From an uncultured candidatus Porisulfidus sp. (GTDB taxonomy: Bacteria > Pseudomonadota > Gammaproteobacteria > Poriferisulfidales > Poriferisulfidaceae): 64,000 nt of DNA. Below the pieces are notes generated by a model. It was not told the DNA's origin and made no database searches. It worked only from the letters and a program-made list of their open reading frames with translations. The DNA is taken from positions 128,001 through 192,000 of the forward strand of contig CBDASZ010000001.1 in assembly GCA_965199755.1 (NCBI GenBank), in the 5' to 3' direction. Below are positions 4,468-16,930 of this stretch, one piece after another. Every line of letters begins with the position of its first letter. Within the stretch, counting starts at the first letter, position 1. The position numbers and the translations under genes were made by a program.

Positions 4468-4944
4468 ATGATGAATCGTATCTCGCTACCGCGCGCAGTT
4501 GTTGCTGCCGCACTCTTTTTTGTCCCATTCGCTGACGCTGATGCCGAGGAACTTTCCGAAGCGCAACAAGCGGCCGTCGCGATGGTGGACGTCGCCGCTG
4601 CACACATCGGCAGTGACGGCATCGTCAGTTTGATCGACGCTGTCAACAATAAGGACGAACGCTATCTGGATGGCGACTTGTACATGTTTATTCTCAATGT
4701 AGGCGGCACAGTCGTAGCCAGCGCCGCGTTCCCGGACACGGTCGATCAGAACCCCAATGAGGCCACGGACCTAGACGGTAATGCGTTCCTCGGCAATCTG
4801 GTCGCAGACTCACGGAGCAACCCGGACGGCATCTGGTTCAGCTATCGCTGGAAAACCCCAGGCGGAGCCGTCGGCGAAAAAAGCAGCTGGCTTCGCTTCG
4901 TTGACGGGCACGTGCTCGGTGCCGGTGTCGTCACTCCCGACTAA
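4468..4944 (+). CDS. secreted stand-alone single Cache-domain protein (copy 1)
   Basis: Signal peptide, then DLYMFI...DLDGNAF...GIWFSYRW...EKSSW...VLGAG, the sCache_2-like pattern; no TM or output domain. Confidence 0.7.
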   Translation: MMNRISLPRAVVAAALFFVPFADADAEELSEAQQAAVAMVDVAAAHIGSDGIVSLIDAVNNKDERYLDGDLYMFILNVGGTVVASAAFPDTVDQNPNEATDLDGNAFLGNLVADSRSNPDGIWFSYRWKTPGGAVGEKSSWLRFVDGHVLGAGVVTPD

Positions 4945-5021: not shown

Positions 5022-5495
5022 ATGAATCGTATCTCGCTACCGCTCGCAGCGATCGCCGCAGCACTCCTTTTTTTTCCGTTCGCTGACGCTGATGCCGAGG
5101 AACTTTCCGAAGCGCAACAAGCAGCCGTCGCGATGGTGGACGCCGCCGCCGGACACGTCGACAGTGACGGCATCGTCAGTTTGCTCGATGCCCTCAACAA
5201 CAAGGACGAGCGCTATCTGGCTGGCGACCTATACTTGTTTGTGCTCAATGTGGGCGGCACCGTCGTGGGCAACCCTGCATTCCCGGAGAGCGTCGACAAG
5301 AACCCCGATGAGGTCAAGGATGCGGACGGCAATGCGTTCCTCTCCAACATGGTCGCGGAATCGCGGGGCAACCCGGACGGCGTCTGGTTCAAGTACCGCT
5401 GGAGCACTCCGAGCGGAACCGTAGGTGAAAAGAGTAGCTGGCTTCGCTTCGTTGACGGACACGTGCTCGGTGCTGGAGTCGTCACCCCCAACTAA
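5022..5495 (+). CDS. secreted stand-alone single Cache-domain protein (copy 2)
   Basis: Tandem paralog of 4468-4944; DLYLFV...NPAFP...KDADGNAF...WFKYRW. Confidence 0.7.
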   Translation: MNRISLPLAAIAAALLFFPFADADAEELSEAQQAAVAMVDAAAGHVDSDGIVSLLDALNNKDERYLAGDLYLFVLNVGGTVVGNPAFPESVDKNPDEVKDADGNAFLSNMVAESRGNPDGVWFKYRWSTPSGTVGEKSSWLRFVDGHVLGAGVVTPN

Positions 5496-8276: not shown

Positions 8277-8351
8277 TGGCGCTCCCTAGGGGAATCGAAC
8301 CCCTGTTCCCGCCTTGAGAGGGCGATGTCCTGACCGCTAGACGAAGGGAGC
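8277..8351 (-). tRNA. tRNA-Glu (CTC)
   Basis: GCTCCCTTCGTCTAGCGGTCAGGACATCGCCCTCTCAAGGCGGGAACAGGGGTTCGATTCCCCTAGGGAGCGCCA; cloverleaf, TTCGA loop, encoded CCA. Confidence 0.95.
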
Positions 8352-8409: not shown

Positions 8410-8750
8410 TCAAACCCCTACTTGATGCAGCGCCACTTTCACCGTGTTGGCCACCAGACAAGCCACCGTCATCGGTCCGGTGCCTCCAGGCATCGGCGTG
8501 ATGTATCCGGCCACTTCACGCACCGCGTCGAACTGCACATCCCCTTGAATCTTCCCGTCCACACGGCTTACTCCTACATCAAACACGGCGGCACCCAGTT
8601 TGACATGATCGGCGCTGATGACTCCCGGACTGCCCGTCACCGCCACCAGAATATCGTCGAACAACTGCGATTCATAGCATAGCGACACCAGCGCACAGTC
8701 CGCACGGGAGCGCTCCAGCAAGCGGTCGTAGTAACCTTGGCGTTGCCCAT
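8410..8750 (-). pseudogene. chimeric remnant: 5-formyl-THF cyclo-ligase fragment fused to the folD 3' end
   Basis: [29 protein letters not shown] matches the 16298-16930 product; [10 protein letters not shown]...[15 protein letters not shown] matches the FolD C-terminus; junction ACCAGAATATC at 8645-8655. Confidence 0.85.
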
Positions 8751-8818
8751 GCACAGTGGTGGTGAGGTGGTTGCGGAATTTTTGCATGCGGGTCATGCAA
8801 AAGACTGTTCGCGGTCTA

Positions 8819-9446
8819 TCAAAATCGGCGGTATGTAACAACTCGCGTCTGCTGCGAACCCTTTATGGTTGCCAGATCAGGCACCGTGCGTGTGGCACAT
8901 ACAGCGAAAACCATGCCGTTCCCAGAACCAATCAATAGCGCCGGGGCATGATGCGGGCTATAGCCGCGGCCAGAACGTGCAGATCGATTACTGTTCTGGT
9001 TGCTATGGTTGCGAAGACTGTTTGATTGGATGGCGATGGGATCACGATGTGAGGATTCGTTTGGGGATGACTCGACATGCTTGTTGGGTGCCCCCCGCGC
9101 ACAAGTCGACTGTTGTCCTGGTTGCAAGGGTCCCGAAAACTGCTTTGTTGCTCGGGGAGCTCCAGAGGACCCCCCCCCCCCCCTATATCTGTAGCTGATA
9201 CCTTGTATGTCGTCATTCACAGGCGTTGCTTTCTCGGCATCACCTGAGCTATCGGATCGAGAGTATGCAGACCCGGTACCGTGTTGGTCGCGACTGTCGC
9301 GAACACCGTCCGCGAAGTTGGCATTGTAATCACTATCGCTTTCTGGAGCAGATGCGGCCTTGTCTCCCTGTGAGTCCCAGATCGGGGGCTGACCTTGTGG
9401 CAAGCAGTCCCCATCCGATTTGAGTGCTGTTTGAGACATAGACTGC
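8819..9446 (-). repeat. array of five homologous TRD cassettes in staggered frames (9446-9333, 9339-9217, 9170-9042, 9048-8932, 8941-8819)
   Basis: Manual translation; shared pattern hhh-x(5-7)-[FW][AG]xhAT[RN][ST]xx[DG]L-x(6-9)-[RQ]hhxx[RK]. Confidence 0.88.
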
Positions 9447-12400
9447 CCCCCCCCCCCTGTTTCATTTCCACGAGGGAATAGCGCAGCAGCCGTTTTGCCT
9501 GCGGACAAGATACGCCAATCCTCATACAGCCAGATTTTTACAAATGGCCGGTATAACACCTCCCTGATATTAGCTTCATCAAAAGTAAGCCTGATTTGTT
9601 TGCGCAACGTTTTCTTAAGGGCATCCGTCCACTTGATTGATTTGATATTTTGAGTGCTTGTCAACTCATCAAGAGCTTGCTGGTTGTCTGGTTTCTGCAA
9701 GATGTCCAGTGTTTTGTTGTATGTGTTAATGAGTGCTTGGGCCTTATTAGCACACTCTTCCCTCGACCAACTGTAGACATAAGTGTCTAAGTTTGTCTTG
9801 ATGCCAGCAACACTGCTAGTAGCGACCGAAGCACTGGCGTTAGTAAGTTTCGCTCTTGTGTTTTTCTGACACAATGGCATCAATGAATTAAATTCCGGAT
9901 TGCCAAGATTAATCCAGGCATGATCTGGAGTCACCGGTATTGTCTCGAATTGTTCGTGGTAAACGTCACCGAGATCCTCTAGCCACTTAAACTTTTGCTC
10001 TAGACTCCGGGAGTCTGGGACCATCGCAATACGCAATGTTGCCGGTTTTTTAATATCCTTCTTCGGATCGTAAACCAAGAAAGTTATCTGGACCCCATTT
10101 CGGGAAGCGCTACCAAAAACCTTATCCCCCTCAAGTTCCCATTCGCTACCACTCTTGTAAGCGTTCCCCCGCAAATTTGCAACATATATGTCCGTGAATT
10201 CGTCTCGCAGAACCTTTCTCATGCCTGCCAGCGAGGTGGCATCCGACAGAGAGTTTGGCGTAACCATTGCCAAAATTCGCGGCCCCGAGGTGACACCTTC
10301 CTGTCCCTGCTTCAGTATCCGGTCGGAGCCCCAGCGCAGTGCCTTGACATATAAGTTGCCACCTGCGTTCCCGCCGGGTGCCCGGCCAGTCAGCTGAGTG
10401 TGTTCTTGAACATAAGTCTGGTGCACCCGCTTGGCGATATCCTGATAGAGAATGTTCGATGCTTTCTCTGATGCGTCATCCTTGCCACTGGACCATGGCG
10501 GGTTCGTCACCAGAACCTCAATATCGGCATCACCTTGGCGCCGTACCCGCTTGTAGTTGTCCTCAAGGTCGTCTGAGTCCAGATTTAGTCGAGCACTTGA
10601 ACTTCCCGGATCAAGTAGAAGCGTGTCAACCAAACTTAAGGACTCGAACGGCTCGTAAGACAACTTGGAGGGGTCTGCCACGCCGGCTTCCTCAACTTGG
10701 CGCTGATGCTTCGTGGCTTCGATGTTCAGGTTTGCAATGTAGTAGGGGAGGAGGAGAAGTTCATTGCCGAAAAACTCCCGCCGGTATTTTCGTGAAAGGT
10801 CAGGCTCGCGAATAAGGTAATTGCCATCGTTATCCCGGAGATTAAGAAGCCGTGCGAGGAATGTCCCTGTGCCAGCGAAGGGTTCCAAAATACGAACATT
10901 CTTGTCAGAAATGCTTTTCCCAAATTCCTTCTGACAAATAGCCTCAATGGAATGTAGCACGAAATCCACAATTTCCACAGGCGTGTATGCAATGCCCATA
11001 GATTTCACTTGACCCGGTATTGCTTGCCGGAAAAAGCTTTCATAGATCTGGCGCAAGATGTCAAGTTTTTTCGCATCACGATCTTGGATTTTCTCCAAAT
11101 TTCGCTCACATCGCTGATCTTCATCAACCAGTTCATCGGCGTGTAAAGCAGTCCGCATCATTTGATACGGGCGCTCCAGTGGTTCGAGTTCAGCCCGGTA
11201 TTCCATTCCCTCAACCTCAAACGCATCCAGTACCTTCTGAATCGCAGCTGACACGGGATTGTCATCGGCAAAATGAGACTGCGAAAAGAACTCATCAAAG
11301 ACTGGTAGCGTGACGATGTGGTGCGCCAGCATGCTGACCGCCATAGTCCGATTGATATTCGGACTGACTGCCTTTTGGAGGTCCACCAAGAACCCATTGA
11401 AGTGCTCTTCAACGGCCGAATTATTATCAACGTGGGCATTGATTTTGGTTTCAATCTTGTCTGAGATTTCAGCCGCGTGCTTGCCCCACTGCAGATACAT
11501 GTGACGGTCGCCACATTCTTCAATTACGAGTGACCCGAATTTCTCTGCTATTGCTTGCCTAAACTTTTCTGGGTCCGCATAGATTGTGTCCTTGAGGTCG
11601 TCACGGACAGAGTCGTCCCTTTTGAGCGGCGGAAGTAATTTGAACGTTACTGGCAATGCACCAGCTTCAATTTCATAGTTTAAACGTTCGTCGTGTGAGC
11701 GCAATGCTCGAATGATTTCGTAGACAGGCTCGAAAGCACTTTTCCTCAGTGTTTTCTCAGCAGCGGCCTTCACATCCCCCCAATCCCAGCTCATCTGAAG
11801 CTGAAGCACTACTGGAATGATCACATAGCCTATCTTCTTATGTGGCGCTCGGCGCATGACCCGGCCCACTGCTTGCGTCACATCAATAGGAGACCGTCTT
11901 GTTTGGAGAAAAACAACCGCATCCAGAGAAGGAACGTCAACTCCCTCAGTGAGTACTCGGACATTTGTCAGAAGTTCGCATACATTTCCCGCAGTGTCTT
12001 TGTGAACTTGCCGCAACCTGTCAAGTTGCGCATCACGTTCAAACGCTGGTGTCTTTGCATCCAGATGATTTACCGACAGTTCCAGTAACTCTGTTTGACC
12101 GTCAGATGGCTCTTCGTCCGAGGCGGAGTACCACTTGATCACGTCGTTCCAAACTTTCTGAATTCTTTTGCTTTCTTTCACACGTGATGCAAATACCAGG
12201 GCAGAGCGGCAGGGTTCCCCATACTGGTCAAGGTTGATCCCACCAATTGGAAGTTCCGGATGTTGCCCCTTTGAGAGTGGGCTAGCTAGCGCATCCCAGC
12301 AACCAGCAAGTTTGATGATGGTTTCGGAGTCAATTTGTTCTCCACCTACATCTATCTCTCGGCCTGCGACTTCACGCTCAAAATCATCCTGTGTGCCACC

Positions 12401-13741
12401 AATGATTACGATCTCGTAGTCGCTCAAATAACCCTCTTTGATAGCATGAGCGAAACTCATCCGATATGCCTCATCGCCGTATGTTTCGACATCGTCCATA
12501 GAATAACTCTGTCCATCAAAATTGCGTTGCTCGAGTTTTTTTCGATGAGTGGGAGTAAACACCCTCGGAGTTGCCGTCATATAGATACGCTTCCTCGCAG
12601 GTAAATACGTGTCGGAATGCAACAAAAGAAAAGGTGATGTGTTTTCGATCTCACTGGCATGCGGCAGGCTGGAAATTTCCTTGTCTGGGTGTTTGAGCTT
12701 CTTCTTTTTCTGCTTGTTATCTTCAATTCCTGTAGTTCGGTGCGCCTCATCAGCGATGATCAGGTCAAGAGTGGCTTTCTTCCCATCGCGTTCAAGCAAA
12801 GATAATGCGAGCGCAAGAACATCTGATGACTGATAAGTACAAAATACGACTCTCATGGCCCCACCTGGCACAGGCTTGGACAACCTTTCCGCCAACTTCT
12901 TTGGCCGGGTCGTGACGGGGATAGGCATTTCAATTACTGATGTCCCATCATCCCTGCCGACCGTTTTGTCGGAACACACCGCAATGTACTCAATAGGTAC
13001 ATCGCGATCGCGATGGCGAGACCACTCTTTTATGGTCTGCCGAACGAGAGCAAGTGACGGCACCAGATATGCAATGGTCTTGCCGGATCCAAACAATTTC
13101 TCAGCAGTACGCAAAGCAACGAAGGACTTCCCGGTGCCGCACGGCAATATCAGTTTGGTGCGGTCTTTTCCTTCAAGCTCCGCTTGAATGCCCTTAATTG
13201 CCTCTCTTTGAAAGTCGTGTAGTTCATGTCGTTTTGTAACAAAGTGTGATGGCCGGACATCAAATTGTTCAAGTGCACCTACAAGACTCTCCCGATCATC
13301 AAACCAGCCAGCAATATCTTGAGTCGTAATCACTTGACATTCAGGGTTTGCATTTTCGAGTTGCGCCTGTACGTTTGAGGTGAGAGAGCGGGTTGTGACT
13401 ATCAAGCGCAGTTTGAATTTCTCGGACTCGCTGGCACCCAGAAAGGAATCAACTTCAGCTTTTCTTACTGTCGAACTGCCGTACTTCGCTTGGACCGCAA
13501 CTAAGCCTCCGCCGTAAGTTTCCGTCTGTTTGGCAACAATGTCTACGCCAATATCAATCCGGCCCCGGTAATCAACGTTGTCAGGCCAGTCCCTCCAGAG
13601 CCAAACGTTCTCGAACCTGTCACGGCCCCAGTCACCAGGGTGTTTCGTAAAGACCTGATGAATGAACTGTTCAAACGTTCGTCCTTGTTGCTGGCGCGAA
13701 CCTTGAAAGTAATTGTCGAAAATTTCTTCGATGCTTTCCAT
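8819..13741 (-). CDS. Type ISP-like restriction-modification enzyme (nuclease-SF2 helicase-N6-adenine MTase-partial TRD) with a variable C-terminus
   Basis: Mrr-like DIGVDIV...VQAK; Walker [24 protein letters not shown]; MTase EPFAGTGTF and NPPW; TRD entry [13 protein letters not shown]; the frame crosses two poly-G tracts. Confidence 0.9.
9170..9183 (-). repeat. homopolymer tract B (G14 on the coding strand)
   Basis: C14 on the + strand, directly before cassette 3. Confidence 0.95.
9446..9457 (-). repeat. homopolymer tract A (G12 on the coding strand)
   Basis: C12 on the + strand, immediately after ...FPRGNET of the core enzyme. Confidence 0.95.
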
Positions 13742-13781
13742 ATTACTAACGCTGGGTGATTGTTAAAAAGGATTCCCAAAC

Positions 13782-14500
13782 CTATGAGTCAAATAAAGAC
13801 CCCGAGTCAGTTGAGACTTCCGATAAAGGTTCAGAGGGCAGTGCCGGCGGCAATGAGCGGATGATTCGGGTCGACTCGATACCAATATAAATGAGGCGGC
13901 GCAAGTGATTGATCAATTCGACAGAGTTATCTGCCCACGCATGCCATGTATTTGGATCGTCACGTATGCCAGAGCGTTTATCAAGCTTCTCACGGAGCGA
14001 GCCAACGGCCCACTCAAGTGGCGACCTGCCAGAGATCTGGTACTCATGCGCCTCAGGAGGGATATCGACTAGTCTGCAATGGTCATTGACGTGAAGAACG
14101 GACCTGTCTTCCTGCTTTGTTTCAGGGTCCTTGCCAAACCGCATCTGCTTGACAATCCGGTACCTGAGATTCTCATCGACACTCTCGTCAACGATACACT
14201 TGACATCAGCCAGAGGAGCTTGCTCGTAGTCGGCGTGCAACTCGAAAAGCTCCGCGCCTGCTTTACAAAATTTCTGAAAGGCCTCAACCCCACCTGGGAC
14301 GAGCGGGATGGATGGCAGATTCTTCTGTAGATCATTCTTGAACTCACGCCGCCAGTCGGGCGCGTGCATAACACCGTAAATGTAATCCCAAACGTCGTCT
14401 TTGGTTATATCCTCTGATTGATAGACTTTCTGAAACTGTGCCAGCGACCAATCGGACACATTATCTGTTTCATATGGAGGGGGGGGGGGGGGGCAAGCAT
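13782..14500 (-). CDS. detached C-terminal portion of the Type ISP enzyme; ATG 14500 is out of frame as assembled, alternative GTG start at 14459
   Basis: YETDNVSDWSLAQFQKVY...ITKDDVWDYIYGVMHAPDWRREFKNDLQKNLPSIPL...IPPEAHEYQISGRSPLEW...SGIRDDPN is the typical Type ISP C-terminal region. Confidence 0.85.
14479..14493 (-). repeat. homopolymer tract C (C15 on the coding strand), starting at the 8th nt of the candidate ATG 14500 reading frame
   Basis: G15 on the + strand; ATG CTT G(C)n T CCA TAT GAA is in frame only for n=13 or 16. Confidence 0.9.
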
Positions 14501-14513
14501 GGGAATCCCGGTG

Positions 14514-15374
14514 CTAATTGCCCGAGTTATGTAGTGCCGCCTTCACAGTATTCGCCATCAAGCAGGCAACTGTCATGGGCCCGGTGCCGCCTGGCATCGG
14601 CGTGATATAGTCAACCACTTCGTGCACTAAATCAAATTGAATATCTCCTCGTATTATGCCATCCACACGCGAGACCCCCACATCAAAGACGGCGGCACCC
14701 GGTTTAACGTGATCGGCACTAATGATCCCGGGACTTCCGGCAGCTGCTACCAGAATATCCGCCTCCCGCGTCAACTGCATCAGGTCCCGTGTGCGCGAAT
14801 GCGCCAGTGTTACCGTCGCATCCACGCCTCGCTCAGCCAACATCATTGCCATTGGCACGCCGACCAGCCGGGAGCGACCCAGTACAACTGCACGTGCGCC
14901 CTCGGTCTCAATTTTGTAATGGTTAATCAGTTCAATCACACCCGACGGCGTGCAGGGGCGCAGGCCTGGCAAGCCAACCGACAAGCGGCCTAGGTTGATT
15001 TCAGTCAGACCATCGACATCCTTGTGCGGTGGAATTGCGTGTAGAACAGGCCCTGCGTCCAAGTGCGATGGCAACGGCATCTGCACCAGAATTCCGTGCA
15101 CGGTCGAATCCTGCGCCAGAATGTGAATCGCTTCAATCAGATCTTCTTGCTTGGTGTCTGAGGGAAGCGCCAGATGACGGGACAGGATGCCTACTTCGCC
15201 GGCTTCCGCGATCTTCCGTGAGATGTACAACTGGCTGGCCGGATCGTCACCGACCAACACCGTGGCTAGTGTGATGGGAGGAAGGCCGCGAATTTGCTCA
15301 CGCAGCCGACCGCACAAAGCATGCGCGACGGCAGTGCCGTCGATAATCTTCCCGGAATGTAAGGGCTCACTCAA
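14514..15374 (-). CDS. folD: methylene-THF dehydrogenase/cyclohydrolase
   Basis: [46 protein letters not shown]. Confidence 0.96.
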   Translation of the reverse strand: MSEPLHSGKIIDGTAVAHALCGRLREQIRGLPPITLATVLVGDDPASQLYISRKIAEAGEVGILSRHLALPSDTKQEDLIEAIHILAQDSTVHGILVQMPLPSHLDAGPVLHAIPPHKDVDGLTEINLGRLSVGLPGLRPCTPSGVIELINHYKIETEGARAVVLGRSRLVGVPMAMMLAERGVDATVTLAHSRTRDLMQLTREADILVAAAGSPGIISADHVKPGAAVFDVGVSRVDGIIRGDIQFDLVHEVVDYITPMPGGTGPMTVACLMANTVKAALHNSGN

Positions 15375-16293
15375 GAGGAGGCTGTTTGTCCGGGTCCAGG
15401 TAAATCAGGTTCTTGCCCAGCCGGCCACCGTAGTTGCCCGCCGAGATCATGATCAAGCCGTCCGTATCCTTGGCCGCGTCAATCGCCGCGTGAGTCGCGT
15501 CAATGATGGTCGGCAGATCCCGACCATTGATGATGATCTCCATGACCGAGTTGACGCCTTCCGGCAAACCGTCCTCGACCTCTGGATCATCCTGCAACAA
15601 GGGGCAGTATTTCTCGTAGGTGCTGGCAATGGAGAAGCTGTAGTCGCTGCCCGGTTTGGAGCCGGAACCCGCGATGCCGCCGGGGAAACACATCACCACG
15701 CCGGGCGTCGCCGCTACCGCTTTCACGCCAGCCTCGGCCGCTTCCAGCGCCGAGTCCACACCGTCACCAAAAAACCAGAGATTGCCGCCCATCAGGCCGT
15801 CCGCATAACCGAGACGCCGATCAAGCACAAACTCACCGCCGAGAATCGGCACCCACCACATCCGACGGCCAAAGCGTTCAATCCGTTTCTGCTTGCCGTT
15901 GCCGAAATACGCCACCTTGCGGCCCATCTGGTAGTACTCTTCCGTATCCAGCAGGTTGAAGCAACTGGCTGTCGGGCAGGTCAGGACGTTTTGGCTGATG
16001 CGCACCAGCGCGGCGCGCTCAAGTTTGGTCACACGGTCTTTCCAAAAGCGCGGCACATGCAACTGCACAATGGCACCGGGGCGTCCGTCAGGGGTCTCAA
16101 AACTCTCATCGCCGCCCGGCCCCACGAAGCGATCCAATCCCGCCTCGCAGTCGCACAGGATGGTGCTGGCGGCATTGCCGACCGCCGCGTCCACTGCGTG
16201 CTTGACCCAGGTTTGGTCCCGGGCCGTAATCAGAAACTCCGCGTAAAGGCTTTTGAATGCCTCGGCGTAAGTATCGTCAATTCGCGCCGCCAT
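15367..16293 (-). CDS. ftr: formylmethanofuran:tetrahydromethanopterin formyltransferase family protein (Ftr/FhcD-like)
   Basis: IDDTYAEAF, CDCEAG, TPDGRPG, QNVLTCPT, GGNL, ISAGNYGGRLG. Confidence 0.88.
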   Translation of the reverse strand: MAARIDDTYAEAFKSLYAEFLITARDQTWVKHAVDAAVGNAASTILCDCEAGLDRFVGPGGDESFETPDGRPGAIVQLHVPRFWKDRVTKLERAALVRISQNVLTCPTASCFNLLDTEEYYQMGRKVAYFGNGKQKRIERFGRRMWWVPILGGEFVLDRRLGYADGLMGGNLWFFGDGVDSALEAAEAGVKAVAATPGVVMCFPGGIAGSGSKPGSDYSFSIASTYEKYCPLLQDDPEVEDGLPEGVNSVMEIIINGRDLPTIIDATHAAIDAAKDTDGLIMISAGNYGGRLGKNLIYLDPDKQPPLE

Positions 16294-16297
16294 CAGA

Positions 16298-16930
16298 TCA
16301 ATCCCGGCCGCGACCTGTGTACACCGCCGCTTCGGTCACAACGTAGTCCATATACACATCGTGCGGTGCCACCAGAATCTCATCAAACAGTTGCGATTCA
16401 TAGCACAGCGACACCAGCGTGCAATCCGAGCGGGAGCGCTCCAGCAAGCGATCGTAGTAGCCTTGCCCGTTGCCCATGCGACCACCGTCACGGTCGAAGC
16501 CAACGCCGGGAACCATCACAAAGTCCAGCTCTTCCGGTTCGACTTCCTTGTCCGGGTTGCCCCACATGTCTTTCGGCGGCTCCAGAATGTTCCATTTGCC
16601 GACCACCATCTCCTCGAGGCTTTCCATGTGCCACAGGCCGAGCTTGTTCTCGCCCTGCTCATCCACGGTGCAGTACGGCACGATCACTTTCTTCTCGCCG
16701 CGCGCCACTTCTTCGAGCAATTCCGGCTTGGTGCGGGTCTCGGAGCGGCAATCGATGTACCACATGATGACGTGGGCTTTCTGGTATTCCTCCAGCGCCA
16801 TCAATCGGGCGACCGCCTGATGGCTGATTTCATCTTTGTTTTCCTGGGCATTGCGGCGATCGTAGGCTTCGCGGCGCATTTTGCCCTTGCGCTCCATGAT
16901 GGCTTCGAGTTCTTCTTGCGACAAGGCCAT
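16298..16930 (-). CDS. fau: 5-formyltetrahydrofolate cyclo-ligase
   Basis: [45 protein letters not shown]. Confidence 0.92.
   Translation of the reverse strand: MALSQEELEAIMERKGKMRREAYDRRNAQENKDEISHQAVARLMALEEYQKAHVIMWYIDCRSETRTKPELLEEVARGEKKVIVPYCTVDEQGENKLGLWHMESLEEMVVGKWNILEPPKDMWGNPDKEVEPEELDFVMVPGVGFDRDGGRMGNGQGYYDRLLERSRSDCTLVSLCYESQLFDEILVAPHDVYMDYVVTEAAVYTGRGRD

Follow-up and report, generated by a model that had tools for sequence, protein, structure and literature searches.

Type ISP restriction-modification (RM) enzymes are by definition single polypeptides; they translocate by means of ATP, cleave where two enzymes collide and methylate one strand of an asymmetric site. The locus described here lies in a 64,000-nucleotide (nt) stretch of the genome of an uncultured Candidatus Porisulfidus sp. 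(assembly GCA_965199755.1, contig CBDASZ010000001.1, positions 128,001 to 192,000; the whole stretch is referred to as the window). It raises the question of how an enzyme of this kind may be organized when its DNA recognition domain is cut in two and the terminal part is encoded by a gene of its own. The locus comprises a small gene of 225 amino acids (aa) followed by a large gene of 1640 aa as assembled; all its features are on the minus strand and are given in window numbering. From the evidence presented below we consider it rather probable that this is a two-gene Type ISP-like RM enzyme, carried by a small acquired island, in which short C-terminal cassettes containing the base-reading element known as Loop VI are selected by reading frame and a separate protein provides the subdomain called the guide. 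Published work is cited here from excerpts of the sources.

Division of a Type ISP-like enzyme between two genes

The small gene (13782-14459) starts with a GTG codon at 14459 and ends with the stop codon 13784-13782, its frame being open back to 14513. The ATG of the large gene (8819-13741) is at 13741, and the spacer that separates it from the stop codon of the small open reading frame (ORF), as read from the sequence, is exactly 40 nt long (13742-13781). According to Pfam, the Type_ISP_C profile (PF18135) is divided between the two: the small ORF matches profile positions 171-340 of 342 (expectation value, E, 1.2e-43) with no internal stop, and the large ORF matches positions 5-101 only, in aa 1309-1416. 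Among solved structures, residues 1399-1572 of the 1578 residues of LlaBIII were aligned with residues 14-204 of the small ORF (E 5e-22), which also aligned to the corresponding C-terminal stretch of LlaGI. An initial annotation, made from the sequence letters, had proposed that the distal C-terminus of a Type ISP enzyme is encoded by a separate ORF 5' of the nuclease domain, 40 nt before the main start codon, and the profile match and the length of the gap bear this out. The motifs it named are present in a looser form (DNVSDW, ITKDDV, YIYGVMH and LPSIP), and the interval that it delimited, up to 14500, also includes a tract of 15 C residues on the coding strand (C15, 14479-14493) that was not mentioned there.

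The remaining domains of a Type ISP enzyme were found in the large protein. An Mrr nuclease is located at its N-terminus (Mrr_cat_2, residues 41-144, E 1.2e-22), followed by a superfamily 2 (SF2) helicase-like ATPase (residues 172-631; ResIII, E 1.7e-15, and Helicase_C, E 3e-9) with visible GTGKS and DEAH motifs, the coupler (ISP_coupler, PF22240, residues 751-865, E 3.4e-24) and a gamma-class N6-adenine methylase (N6_Mtase, residues 893-1093, E 4e-7) that has an NPPW motif and aligns to the methylase part of LlaGI. The large protein could be aligned to LlaGI, LlaBIII and DrdV up to a YRPF motif; as assembled, the gene runs from the first part of the target recognition domain (TRD), as assigned with Pfam, through a linker to the last of the cassettes described below. 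Core, jaw and guide of the recognition domain are all present, distributed over the two genes and a selectable cassette. Judged by its domain content, this is a Type ISP enzyme without the defining single-polypeptide feature, since a stop codon and 40 nt lie between the two ORFs that share the profile. No second copy of the part encoded by the small ORF was found in the genome (1.39 Mb, 4 contigs).

An assembly artefact caused by mis-joins at polyG was considered, as all three long tracts of the locus lie at junctions, and was rejected. The junction between the small and the large gene is spanned by independent public contigs (13424-13955 and 13435-13783), and another independent public contig (14218-14526) spans the junction between the neighboring folD gene, the C15 tract and the small gene; the layout is thus not an artefact of a single assembly. 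Moreover, contigs span all junctions, and many organisms show the same design in assemblies of both the chromosome-level and the short-read kind. The tract lengths, between 12 and 15 nt, are also below the word sizes usually employed for assembly, which argues against a mis-join.

Cassettes and G tracts at the end of the large gene

Three homopolymers of at least 9 nt exist in the 64-kb window, and all of them are at this locus (C15, G12 and G14). On the coding strand, tract 1 (G12, 9446-9457) lies inside the large ORF directly 3' of the codons for FPRGNET and constitutes a first branch point; tract 2 (G14, 9170-9183), also inside the large ORF, constitutes a second one. Translation revealed five cassettes of around 40 aa spread over all three frames, each recognized by a cassette hidden Markov model (HMM) that was built from the loci of the comparison described below. 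Cassette A (9336-9455, E 8e-8) is in frame 0 and is followed by two stop codons, and cassette B (9220-9345, E 9e-12) is in frame 2 and ends at a stop codon. After tract 2, cassettes C (9045-9179, E 6e-17) and D (8935-9057, E 1e-11) are read in frames 0 and 2, respectively, each followed by a stop codon, and cassette E (8822-8950, E 1e-11), with two stop codons behind it, shares the frame that the large ORF has in the assembly. All share a hydrophobic strand, PSN-like residues, F..LAT, PDL, a variable stretch, and Q/R..PR with basic residues.

Frame counting assigns one defined product to each length class of the two tracts, five cassettes in all. A length of tract 1 equal to 1 modulo 3 leads to cassette A and one equal to 2 modulo 3 to cassette B, whose frame passes a linker first, while a multiple of three continues to tract 2. 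There, lengths of 0, 1 and 2 modulo 3 lead to cassettes C, D and E, respectively. In the frame as assembled, cassette E is preceded by around 210 residues of out-of-frame linker.

Position of the split in the recognition domain

According to the excerpts of the structural description of LlaGI and LlaBIII, the recognition domain of LlaBIII is formed by a core (1205-1244 and 1291-1448), a jaw (1245-1288) and a guide (1448-1578), the latter being presented there as the most conserved subdomain and as one that takes no part in target recognition (PMC4872093). The base-reading elements given in LlaGI numbering include Loop IV (1223-1230), Loop V (1324-1331) and Loop VI (1365-1374), the last of which is one of six elements with base-specific contacts in both enzymes, and a conserved beta-hairpin (1347-1358, LlaGI numbering) contacts Loop VI (PMC4872093). 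Since residue R1319 of LlaBIII, in Loop V, is paired in the same source with alignment position 1327 of the LlaGI numbering, the two numberings are approximately 8 residues apart in this region.

The cassettes were placed on this scheme with the help of a single-chain relative from a related genome (L002), which aligned with LlaBIII residues 1266-1573, its YRPF and IFP motifs falling at 1302-1305 and 1326-1328. The stretch of L002 equivalent to a cassette corresponds approximately to LlaBIII 1335-1375 and is followed by a short linker and then by DNITD. By this alignment, and under either numbering, a cassette would comprise the beta-hairpin and the base-reading Loop VI; Loop V is encoded just before tract 1. 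The small protein, from its Pfam match and its alignment to LlaBIII, would in turn correspond to the guide together with the final helices of the TRD core. The two sides of the split differ in charge: the last 10 residues of the cassettes have a mean charge of +3.2 (positive in 362 of 368), and the 25 residues that precede DN[IV][TS].W in the small proteins a mean of -4.85 (negative in 71 of 75).

Relatives of the small gene and their gene order

A word-indexed search retrieved 108 stand-alone homologues of the small protein (123-394 aa, 34-96% identity) in which PF18135 is the sole domain, along with 11 matches to longer proteins with 32-42% identity. In an exhaustive search, 3044 proteins were found at E <=0.001 and 77 at E <=1e-30, among them a few fused relatives with 45-49% identity. 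A scan of one genome per species gave no matches when a single small protein was used as query; with an alignment of small proteins, a relative turned out to be encoded in 133 of 156 candidate stretches. Eighty of these loci were kept, so that together with the window there were 81 sources, containing 82 small-gene matches. The 80 loci come mostly from sponge-associated lineages or metagenome-assembled genome (MAG) bins (Acidimicrobiia, Ca. Poriferisodalis, Poriferisocius, Spongiisociaceae, Aldehydirespirator), with one Thermoanaerobaculia genome and one gammaproteobacterium of the OMG group, and many are in chromosome-level assemblies.

None of the 82 small genes is fused to a large gene; their open frames range from 222 to 551 aa, with a median of 259.5. 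The ratio of nonsynonymous to synonymous substitution rates (dN/dS) of the small gene was 0.07-0.20 in all 11 informative pairs of relatives, including pairs among L055, L057 and L067, which have an out-of-frame ATG; in a twelfth pair, formed by the window and L011, synonymous sites were saturated. The initial annotation had allowed that the small ORF might be the relic of an unrelated paralog. The stand-alone homologues and these dN/dS values indicate a conserved separate gene instead. Within the phylum, 28 of 401 sampled genomes match PF18135, 21 of them with the whole profile in one frame of 371-1677 aa, and the domain is divided in this way in the present genome only, a few others being partial matches, mostly at contig ends. 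Among 40 closer relatives there were five strong matches, all of them single frames of 1389-1713 aa.

The order of the genes is not the same everywhere. The small gene is downstream of the large gene and its array in 36 of the 82 cases, upstream as in the window in 22, and divergent in 10; of the rest, four have a large gene on both sides (tandem), one is upstream and divergent, and for nine the fetched piece contains no large gene. When a quick maximum-likelihood tree was made from the small proteins, the upstream layout required 8 changes, compared with 20.2 when labels were shuffled, and the divergent layout 2 compared with 9.6. The window groups with L011 and L013, which have the upstream layout and around 55-60% identity, with a support of 96, although long branches meet there. 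This clustering of layouts on the tree suggests that the permuted order is stable and inherited, as one of three such recurring layouts. The initial annotation had attributed the freedom of the C-terminus of the large subunit to this permutation, a view that cannot be maintained given the number of small genes in ordinary order: the split is common to all loci while the layout varies, so that it is the split that frees the variable C-terminus.

The tandem loci invite another explanation of the upstream position, namely that a further unit of a tandem array once lay upstream and was lost except for its tail, the small gene, which would serve the downstream large gene by accident. The four small genes flanked by large genes on both sides are in line with this, and L068 (large-array-small-large-array-small-large) shows what such a tandem looks like. 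We nevertheless find this very improbable. Neither the window nor the 21 other upstream-only loci have another small gene behind the array in the 10 kb fetched, and the upstream layout forms several clades with fewer than half of the changes obtained by shuffling. Such an origin would in any case not alter the present function of what is the only copy in the genome.

Cassette arrays and reading frames across loci

The cassette HMM gave 387 matches in 77 of the 81 sources, and the four sources without matches are short or have no large gene. Most arrays contain 3, 5 or 7 cassettes; they start directly after the conserved end of the large gene, use all three frames and hold G or C tracts of 8-37 nt. 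In 343 of the 387 cassettes, a stop codon follows no more than 6 residues after the match ends. Tract density was approximately 38 times higher in the arrays (128 tracts in 65 kb) than in the remaining 1,464 kb of the same loci (75 tracts). As a control, 27 loci with an undivided domain (103 kb) were analyzed, in which there was a single tract and no locus with more than one cassette match. The association of split homologues with cassette arrays put forward in the initial annotation was thus found in 77 of the 81 small-gene sources and in none of the 27 undivided loci.

Whether the tracts give access to the cassettes was evaluated in 62 arrays for which the end of the large gene was mapped and in which one or more tracts reach 8 nt; together they contain 321 cassettes. 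Through stop-free frames, with frame changes permitted at the real tracts only, 240 of the 321 could be reached; 55 were reachable with no frame change, and 54 arrays have at least one cassette in frame as assembled. When the same number of tracts was placed at random, a mean of 115.8 cassettes was reached. In the window, all five are reachable. The idea in the initial annotation that the variable C-terminus can be swapped by frameshifting, and tethered on linkers of any length, is supported by this, the frameshifts being possible at homopolymer tracts and the cassettes being approached through stop-free out-of-frame linkers of very different lengths.

These results bear on the possibility that the locus is simply a decaying gene, i.e., a single-chain Type ISP gene that, in a symbiont with a reduced genome, was broken by runaway homopolymers and rearrangement, with the small ORF as a functionless leftover. 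The small size of the genome (1.39 Mb), the foreign GC content of the island with a degenerate folD copy alongside, the small ORF without in-frame ATG or TTG, and the approximately 210 out-of-frame residues read in the large ORF would all be compatible with it. We regard decay as highly unlikely, however, because it leaves unexplained the recurrence of the architecture in 77 of the 81 sources, the low dN/dS found for the small gene in every one of the 11 informative pairs (those from L055, L057 and L067 with their out-of-frame ATG included), the stop codons placed right after nearly all cassettes and the excess of reachable cassettes over random tracts. Furthermore, the small ORF spans its half of the Pfam profile with no stop (E 1e-43), and the upstream layout is common to L011 and L013 in a clade with support 96 despite an identity of around 55-60%.

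Clustering separated the cassettes into four large classes, with 119, 79, 74 and 74 members, and several small ones. Certain patterns recur among arrays (DAB, DACAB, ADACCB), and a subtype may be present twice within a single array; the window cassettes belong, in order, to classes C-like, B-like, D, B-like and A. It may be that each of the four dominant classes stands for one of the four base pairs that a single target position can have. The subtypes differ most after the PDL motif, in the stretch that aligns with Loop VI.

A different role for the cassettes has to be weighed at this point. The two-gene enzyme could be real and its cassettes serve to tune activity (restriction versus methylation, linker length, stability, or escape from phage anti-restriction proteins), or only the tract-adjacent cassette could work and the others represent off states. 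The strong conservation of the cassette core, the fact that only about four major subtypes recur, and the long linkers ahead of distal cassettes speak in its favor. We still judge it unlikely, since the greatest difference among subtypes falls on the stretch aligned with Loop VI, described as base-contacting in the excerpts of the structural work (PMC4872093), and since stop-free paths to distal cassettes are far commoner than with random tracts, which argues for their use. Selection of specificity by means of the cassettes thus remains our preferred reading.

In a fused relative, P0130, the part equivalent to the small protein follows directly on a single cassette, which fits the idea that the split accompanies multiple cassettes. 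Two other fused relatives, P0145 and P0132, carry repeats, one having a run of six glycines at the position of Loop VI and the other a repeated QVTGHRS in the linker that leads to the small-protein part, so that linkers rich in repeats are found in unsplit relatives too. Few or no homopolymers were seen in L036, L023, L028, L016, L025, L045 and L079, where other repeats follow the conserved end of the large gene: runs of ERERER, suggesting (GA)n, and 12-nt or similar units encoding RPTD, SQPA or TENREQR. Dinucleotide repeats could shift the frame, and 12-nt repeats would alter linker length only. In addition, G or C tracts of 10-13 nt are present inside or at the start of large genes in L068 (5415-5427, 12226-12236, 18620-18631) and L027 (5169-5178); these may be on/off switches of the whole enzyme.

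Variation of tract length and the tract of the small gene

Hypermutable repeats of the type associated with phase variation, a reversible and frequent switching within clones, are located in or just before the coding regions of the locus (G12, G14 and C15). The locus is carried by sponge-metagenome runs of two studies, in which the comparison was made on assembled contigs. In run X1, a 509-nt contig (9087-9597) has no mismatch to the window, but each of its tracts lacks one G (G11 and G13); cassette B would be selected in this case. Run X2 has a 503-nt contig (9087-9590), also with no mismatch, in which G12 and G13 would select cassette D. With G12 and G14 leading to cassette E in the window, three assemblies would thus have three different selected ends.

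The recognition region also varies outside the tracts. In contigs of runs X2 and X3, 100 nt of the large gene (9653-9752) are exchanged for 103 other letters; from the alignment to LlaGI, LlaBIII and DrdV, this stretch is in or beside the jaw. A contig of X3 connects 9128 with 9498, so that 369 nt and both G tracts are missing from it. These variants suggest allelic variation of the recognition region within the same habitat.

The C15 tract is at the 5' end of the small gene, with two candidate start codons just upstream, ATG (14498-14500) and TTG (14494-14496). Both are out of frame with the small ORF at a length of 15; C13 or C16 would bring the ATG in frame, and C11, C14 or C17 the TTG. In the X1 contig spanning 14218-14526, this tract is shorter by 6 letters, and P0001, a protein 96% identical to the small protein, starts with M, five prolines and YETDNVSDW, so that the tract is read there as codons and with a different length. 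As C15 lies directly behind the start codons, translation of the small gene, and hence the whole enzyme, is probably phase-variable, and we infer from this arrangement that the small gene can be switched on and off.

A tract of at least 7 nt within 200 nt upstream was found for 14 of the 82 small genes, nine with the upstream layout, five with the divergent layout and none with the downstream layout. In the upstream-layout loci the tract usually comes directly after an ATG, and it is in frame with that ATG as assembled in one of eight. In the divergent loci L020, L028, L056 and L066, a G10-G15 tract is situated 100-140 nt upstream of the small gene, between hexamers that by eye are of the TTG type and CATAAT or CATAAG. 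By the same visual inspection, this tract would be the spacer of a -35/-10-like promoter and act as a transcriptional repeat switch of the small gene. Small genes with an out-of-frame ATG are under purifying selection, which agrees better with reversible switching than with decay; in this respect, according to the excerpt of a preprint, a Type III mod gene is not fully silent in its frameshifted repeat states.

Proposed mechanism

In the mechanism that we propose, the large protein would bring together nuclease, translocase, coupler, adenine methylase and the front of the recognition domain with one of five cassettes. Gain or loss of a G by slipped-strand change in a tract would give it another C-terminus. 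If the cassette is the hairpin plus Loop VI, its replacement probably gives methylation and restriction alike another target sequence. As a single downstream sequence cannot be joined to all five alternative ends, the rest of the domain would be made as a separate protein of 225 aa, which would dock non-covalently on whichever cassette is present and pack its helices and guide against the core. As nuclease, methylase and recognition act in one complex, a change of cassette would shift protection and attack together. The domain complementarity of the two proteins, the linkage of their genes and the complementary charge at the split point lead us to infer that they assemble into a heterodimer, as the initial annotation had suggested.

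Taken across loci, the system might be a recombinase-free, multi-way specificity switch. One to three tracts would work as a ternary decision tree addressing 3, 5 or 7 Loop VI modules stored in three frames, the gain or loss of one G changing the sequence methylated and cut; the invariant guide would be a trans-acting subunit with its own repeat switch, and the whole would have spread horizontally among unrelated sponge symbionts (Actinomycetota, Pseudomonadota, Acidobacteriota). We put this complete picture forward tentatively, its joint probability falling somewhat short of an even chance.

Several observations weigh against the interpretation given above. The case for binding between the two proteins is made from sequence, and a change of specificity is deduced from the homology of the cassettes to Loop VI. 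The differences in tract length come from short-read contigs, which are prone to miscount long G runs, and the best holder of the locus may be the very sample from which the window was assembled. As assembled, the small ORF has no in-frame ATG or TTG, and its GTG has no obvious ribosome-binding site; given that the ATG is out of frame in seven of the eight upstream-layout loci with a tract, the small protein may often not be made. Metatranscriptome contigs (run X6) cover 11368-13723 only, with mismatches, and an RNA library can contain DNA; no RNA contigs over the small gene or the cassettes were found among them. The linker of about 210 out-of-frame residues before cassette E would be an unusual insert for a beta-sheet domain. 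Of the 321 cassettes, 81 were unreachable with tracts of at least 8 nt; arrays without such tracts may use (GA)n or other repeats. Finally, the small number of recurring subtypes and their repetition within an array limit the number of specificities that can be encoded.

Genomic island

The system occupies an island of approximately 8842-14513 between folD and a tRNA-Glu gene, with a GC content of 0.46-0.54 within 8800-14500 and 0.57-0.64 outside. On one side, the intact folD (14514-15374) ends with its stop at 14514, 20 nt from the C15 tract, and is accompanied by a formyltransferase-like gene (15367-16293) and a 5-formyltetrahydrofolate (5-formyl-THF) cyclo-ligase gene (16298-16930). The far border (approximately 8410-8760) consists of degenerate 3' ends of cyclo-ligase and folD, as identified with Pfam on the ORF 8410-8841. 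In this fragment the C-terminal end of the cyclo-ligase is joined directly to that of FolD, and its DNA is 74% identical to the intact folD; sequence comparison delimited a direct repeat of 231 nt with this same identity (8425-8655 and 14529-14759). Beyond this border a tRNA search located tRNA-Glu(CTC) at 8277-8351. The folD/cyclo-ligase chimera looks like a scar of the arrival of the island. The low GC content, the folD and tRNA-Glu borders and the absence of the system from most close relatives point to horizontal acquisition.

Some short matches were noticed in the locus. The 9-nt word ATGAAACAG is present just before tract 1 (9458-9466) and just after C15 (14465-14473) in the same codon phase (GAA ACA, encoding E T), and another word, ACAGATA, found before tract 2, recurs at the start of the small-ORF region. 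They may be due to chance or be a trace of a past rearrangement. The folD repeat and ATGAAACAG prompted us to consider a circular permutation via a circle cut inside the gene, which was discarded since a join at that point skips the cassettes entirely and the copies of the repeat are just 74% identical. Inversion between the oppositely oriented tracts, acting as an inverted repeat, was likewise discarded as a switch, since it would part the large gene from its cassettes. Elsewhere in the window, on the plus strand, 4468-4944 and 5022-5495 encode two tandem paralogues of around 157 aa each, which closely resemble one another and have hydrophobic, signal-like N-termini; they are unrelated to the split enzyme.

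Significance and comparison with known systems

The base-reading tip of the enzyme appears to be modular, made of a short terminal cassette chosen by reading frame and a common partner protein. Changing the specificity of restriction enzymes is called an unaccomplished engineering challenge in the excerpts of the LlaGI/LlaBIII work (PMC4872093), and the locus, if correctly interpreted, would offer a natural guide to where a recognition domain can be cut and re-tipped. It would also be the first split Type ISP system and a new route to multi-state phase variation without recombinases. The results also suggest a defence trait that sponge symbionts share and probably exchange; for their dense populations it would, on the same premise, represent a constantly reshuffled barrier to phages. 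The connection between tract state and methylation motif is a testable link in existing long-read sponge metagenomes. A literature search, with subscription journals and supplements outside its reach, found no account of a Type ISP system that is split or bears cassettes.

Known systems share parts of this design. In the Type IIL structure PDB 7LO5, which we take to be DrdV, the small protein finds its counterpart in the C-terminal 200 residues (alignment with E 1.5e-19), and the part that precedes them aligns with the front of the recognition domain in the large protein; unlike the present enzyme, DrdV is a single chain without helicase, and we know of no cassettes in it. The Type IIB enzyme BcgI has a second subunit that carries the recognition domains, whereas the separate protein described here would be a non-reading guide, the reading loops remaining on the large protein. 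What both have in common is that a fused nuclease-methylase works with a second polypeptide, as stated for BcgI in the available excerpt (PMC4027205).

The closest relatives in architecture are LlaGI and LlaBIII, encoded by Lactococcus plasmids, which have the same order of Mrr nuclease, SF2 ATPase, coupler, gamma-class methylase and core, jaw and guide (PMC4872093). They are single polypeptides, in contrast to the present system, where the domain would be interrupted behind Loop VI, the guide has a gene of its own and there are five frame-selected versions of the stretch that precedes the cut. In the Type I system NgoAV of Neisseria gonorrhoeae, a polyG tract in hsdS1 shifts the frame and changes the form of the specificity part, and the title of a 2011 paper cited in the same source says that the tract changes NgoAV's specificity for DNA sequence (PMC9577141). 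NgoAV differs in having one tract with two or three outcomes (truncated, fused, inactive) and an ordinary separate HsdS, with no module array in three frames. The hsdS shufflons or 'epigenetic invertons' of Type I systems, such as those of Streptococcus pneumoniae, keep silent specificity modules beside the gene (PMC7672463, PMC7394358). Their modules are exchanged by recombinase-driven inversion between repeats, whereas here the choice would be made by reading frame; neither a recombinase nor long inverted repeats were seen at this locus. By analogy, NgoAV appears to be the nearest precedent for a tract that changes specificity, and the hsdS inverton the nearest for stored alternative modules.

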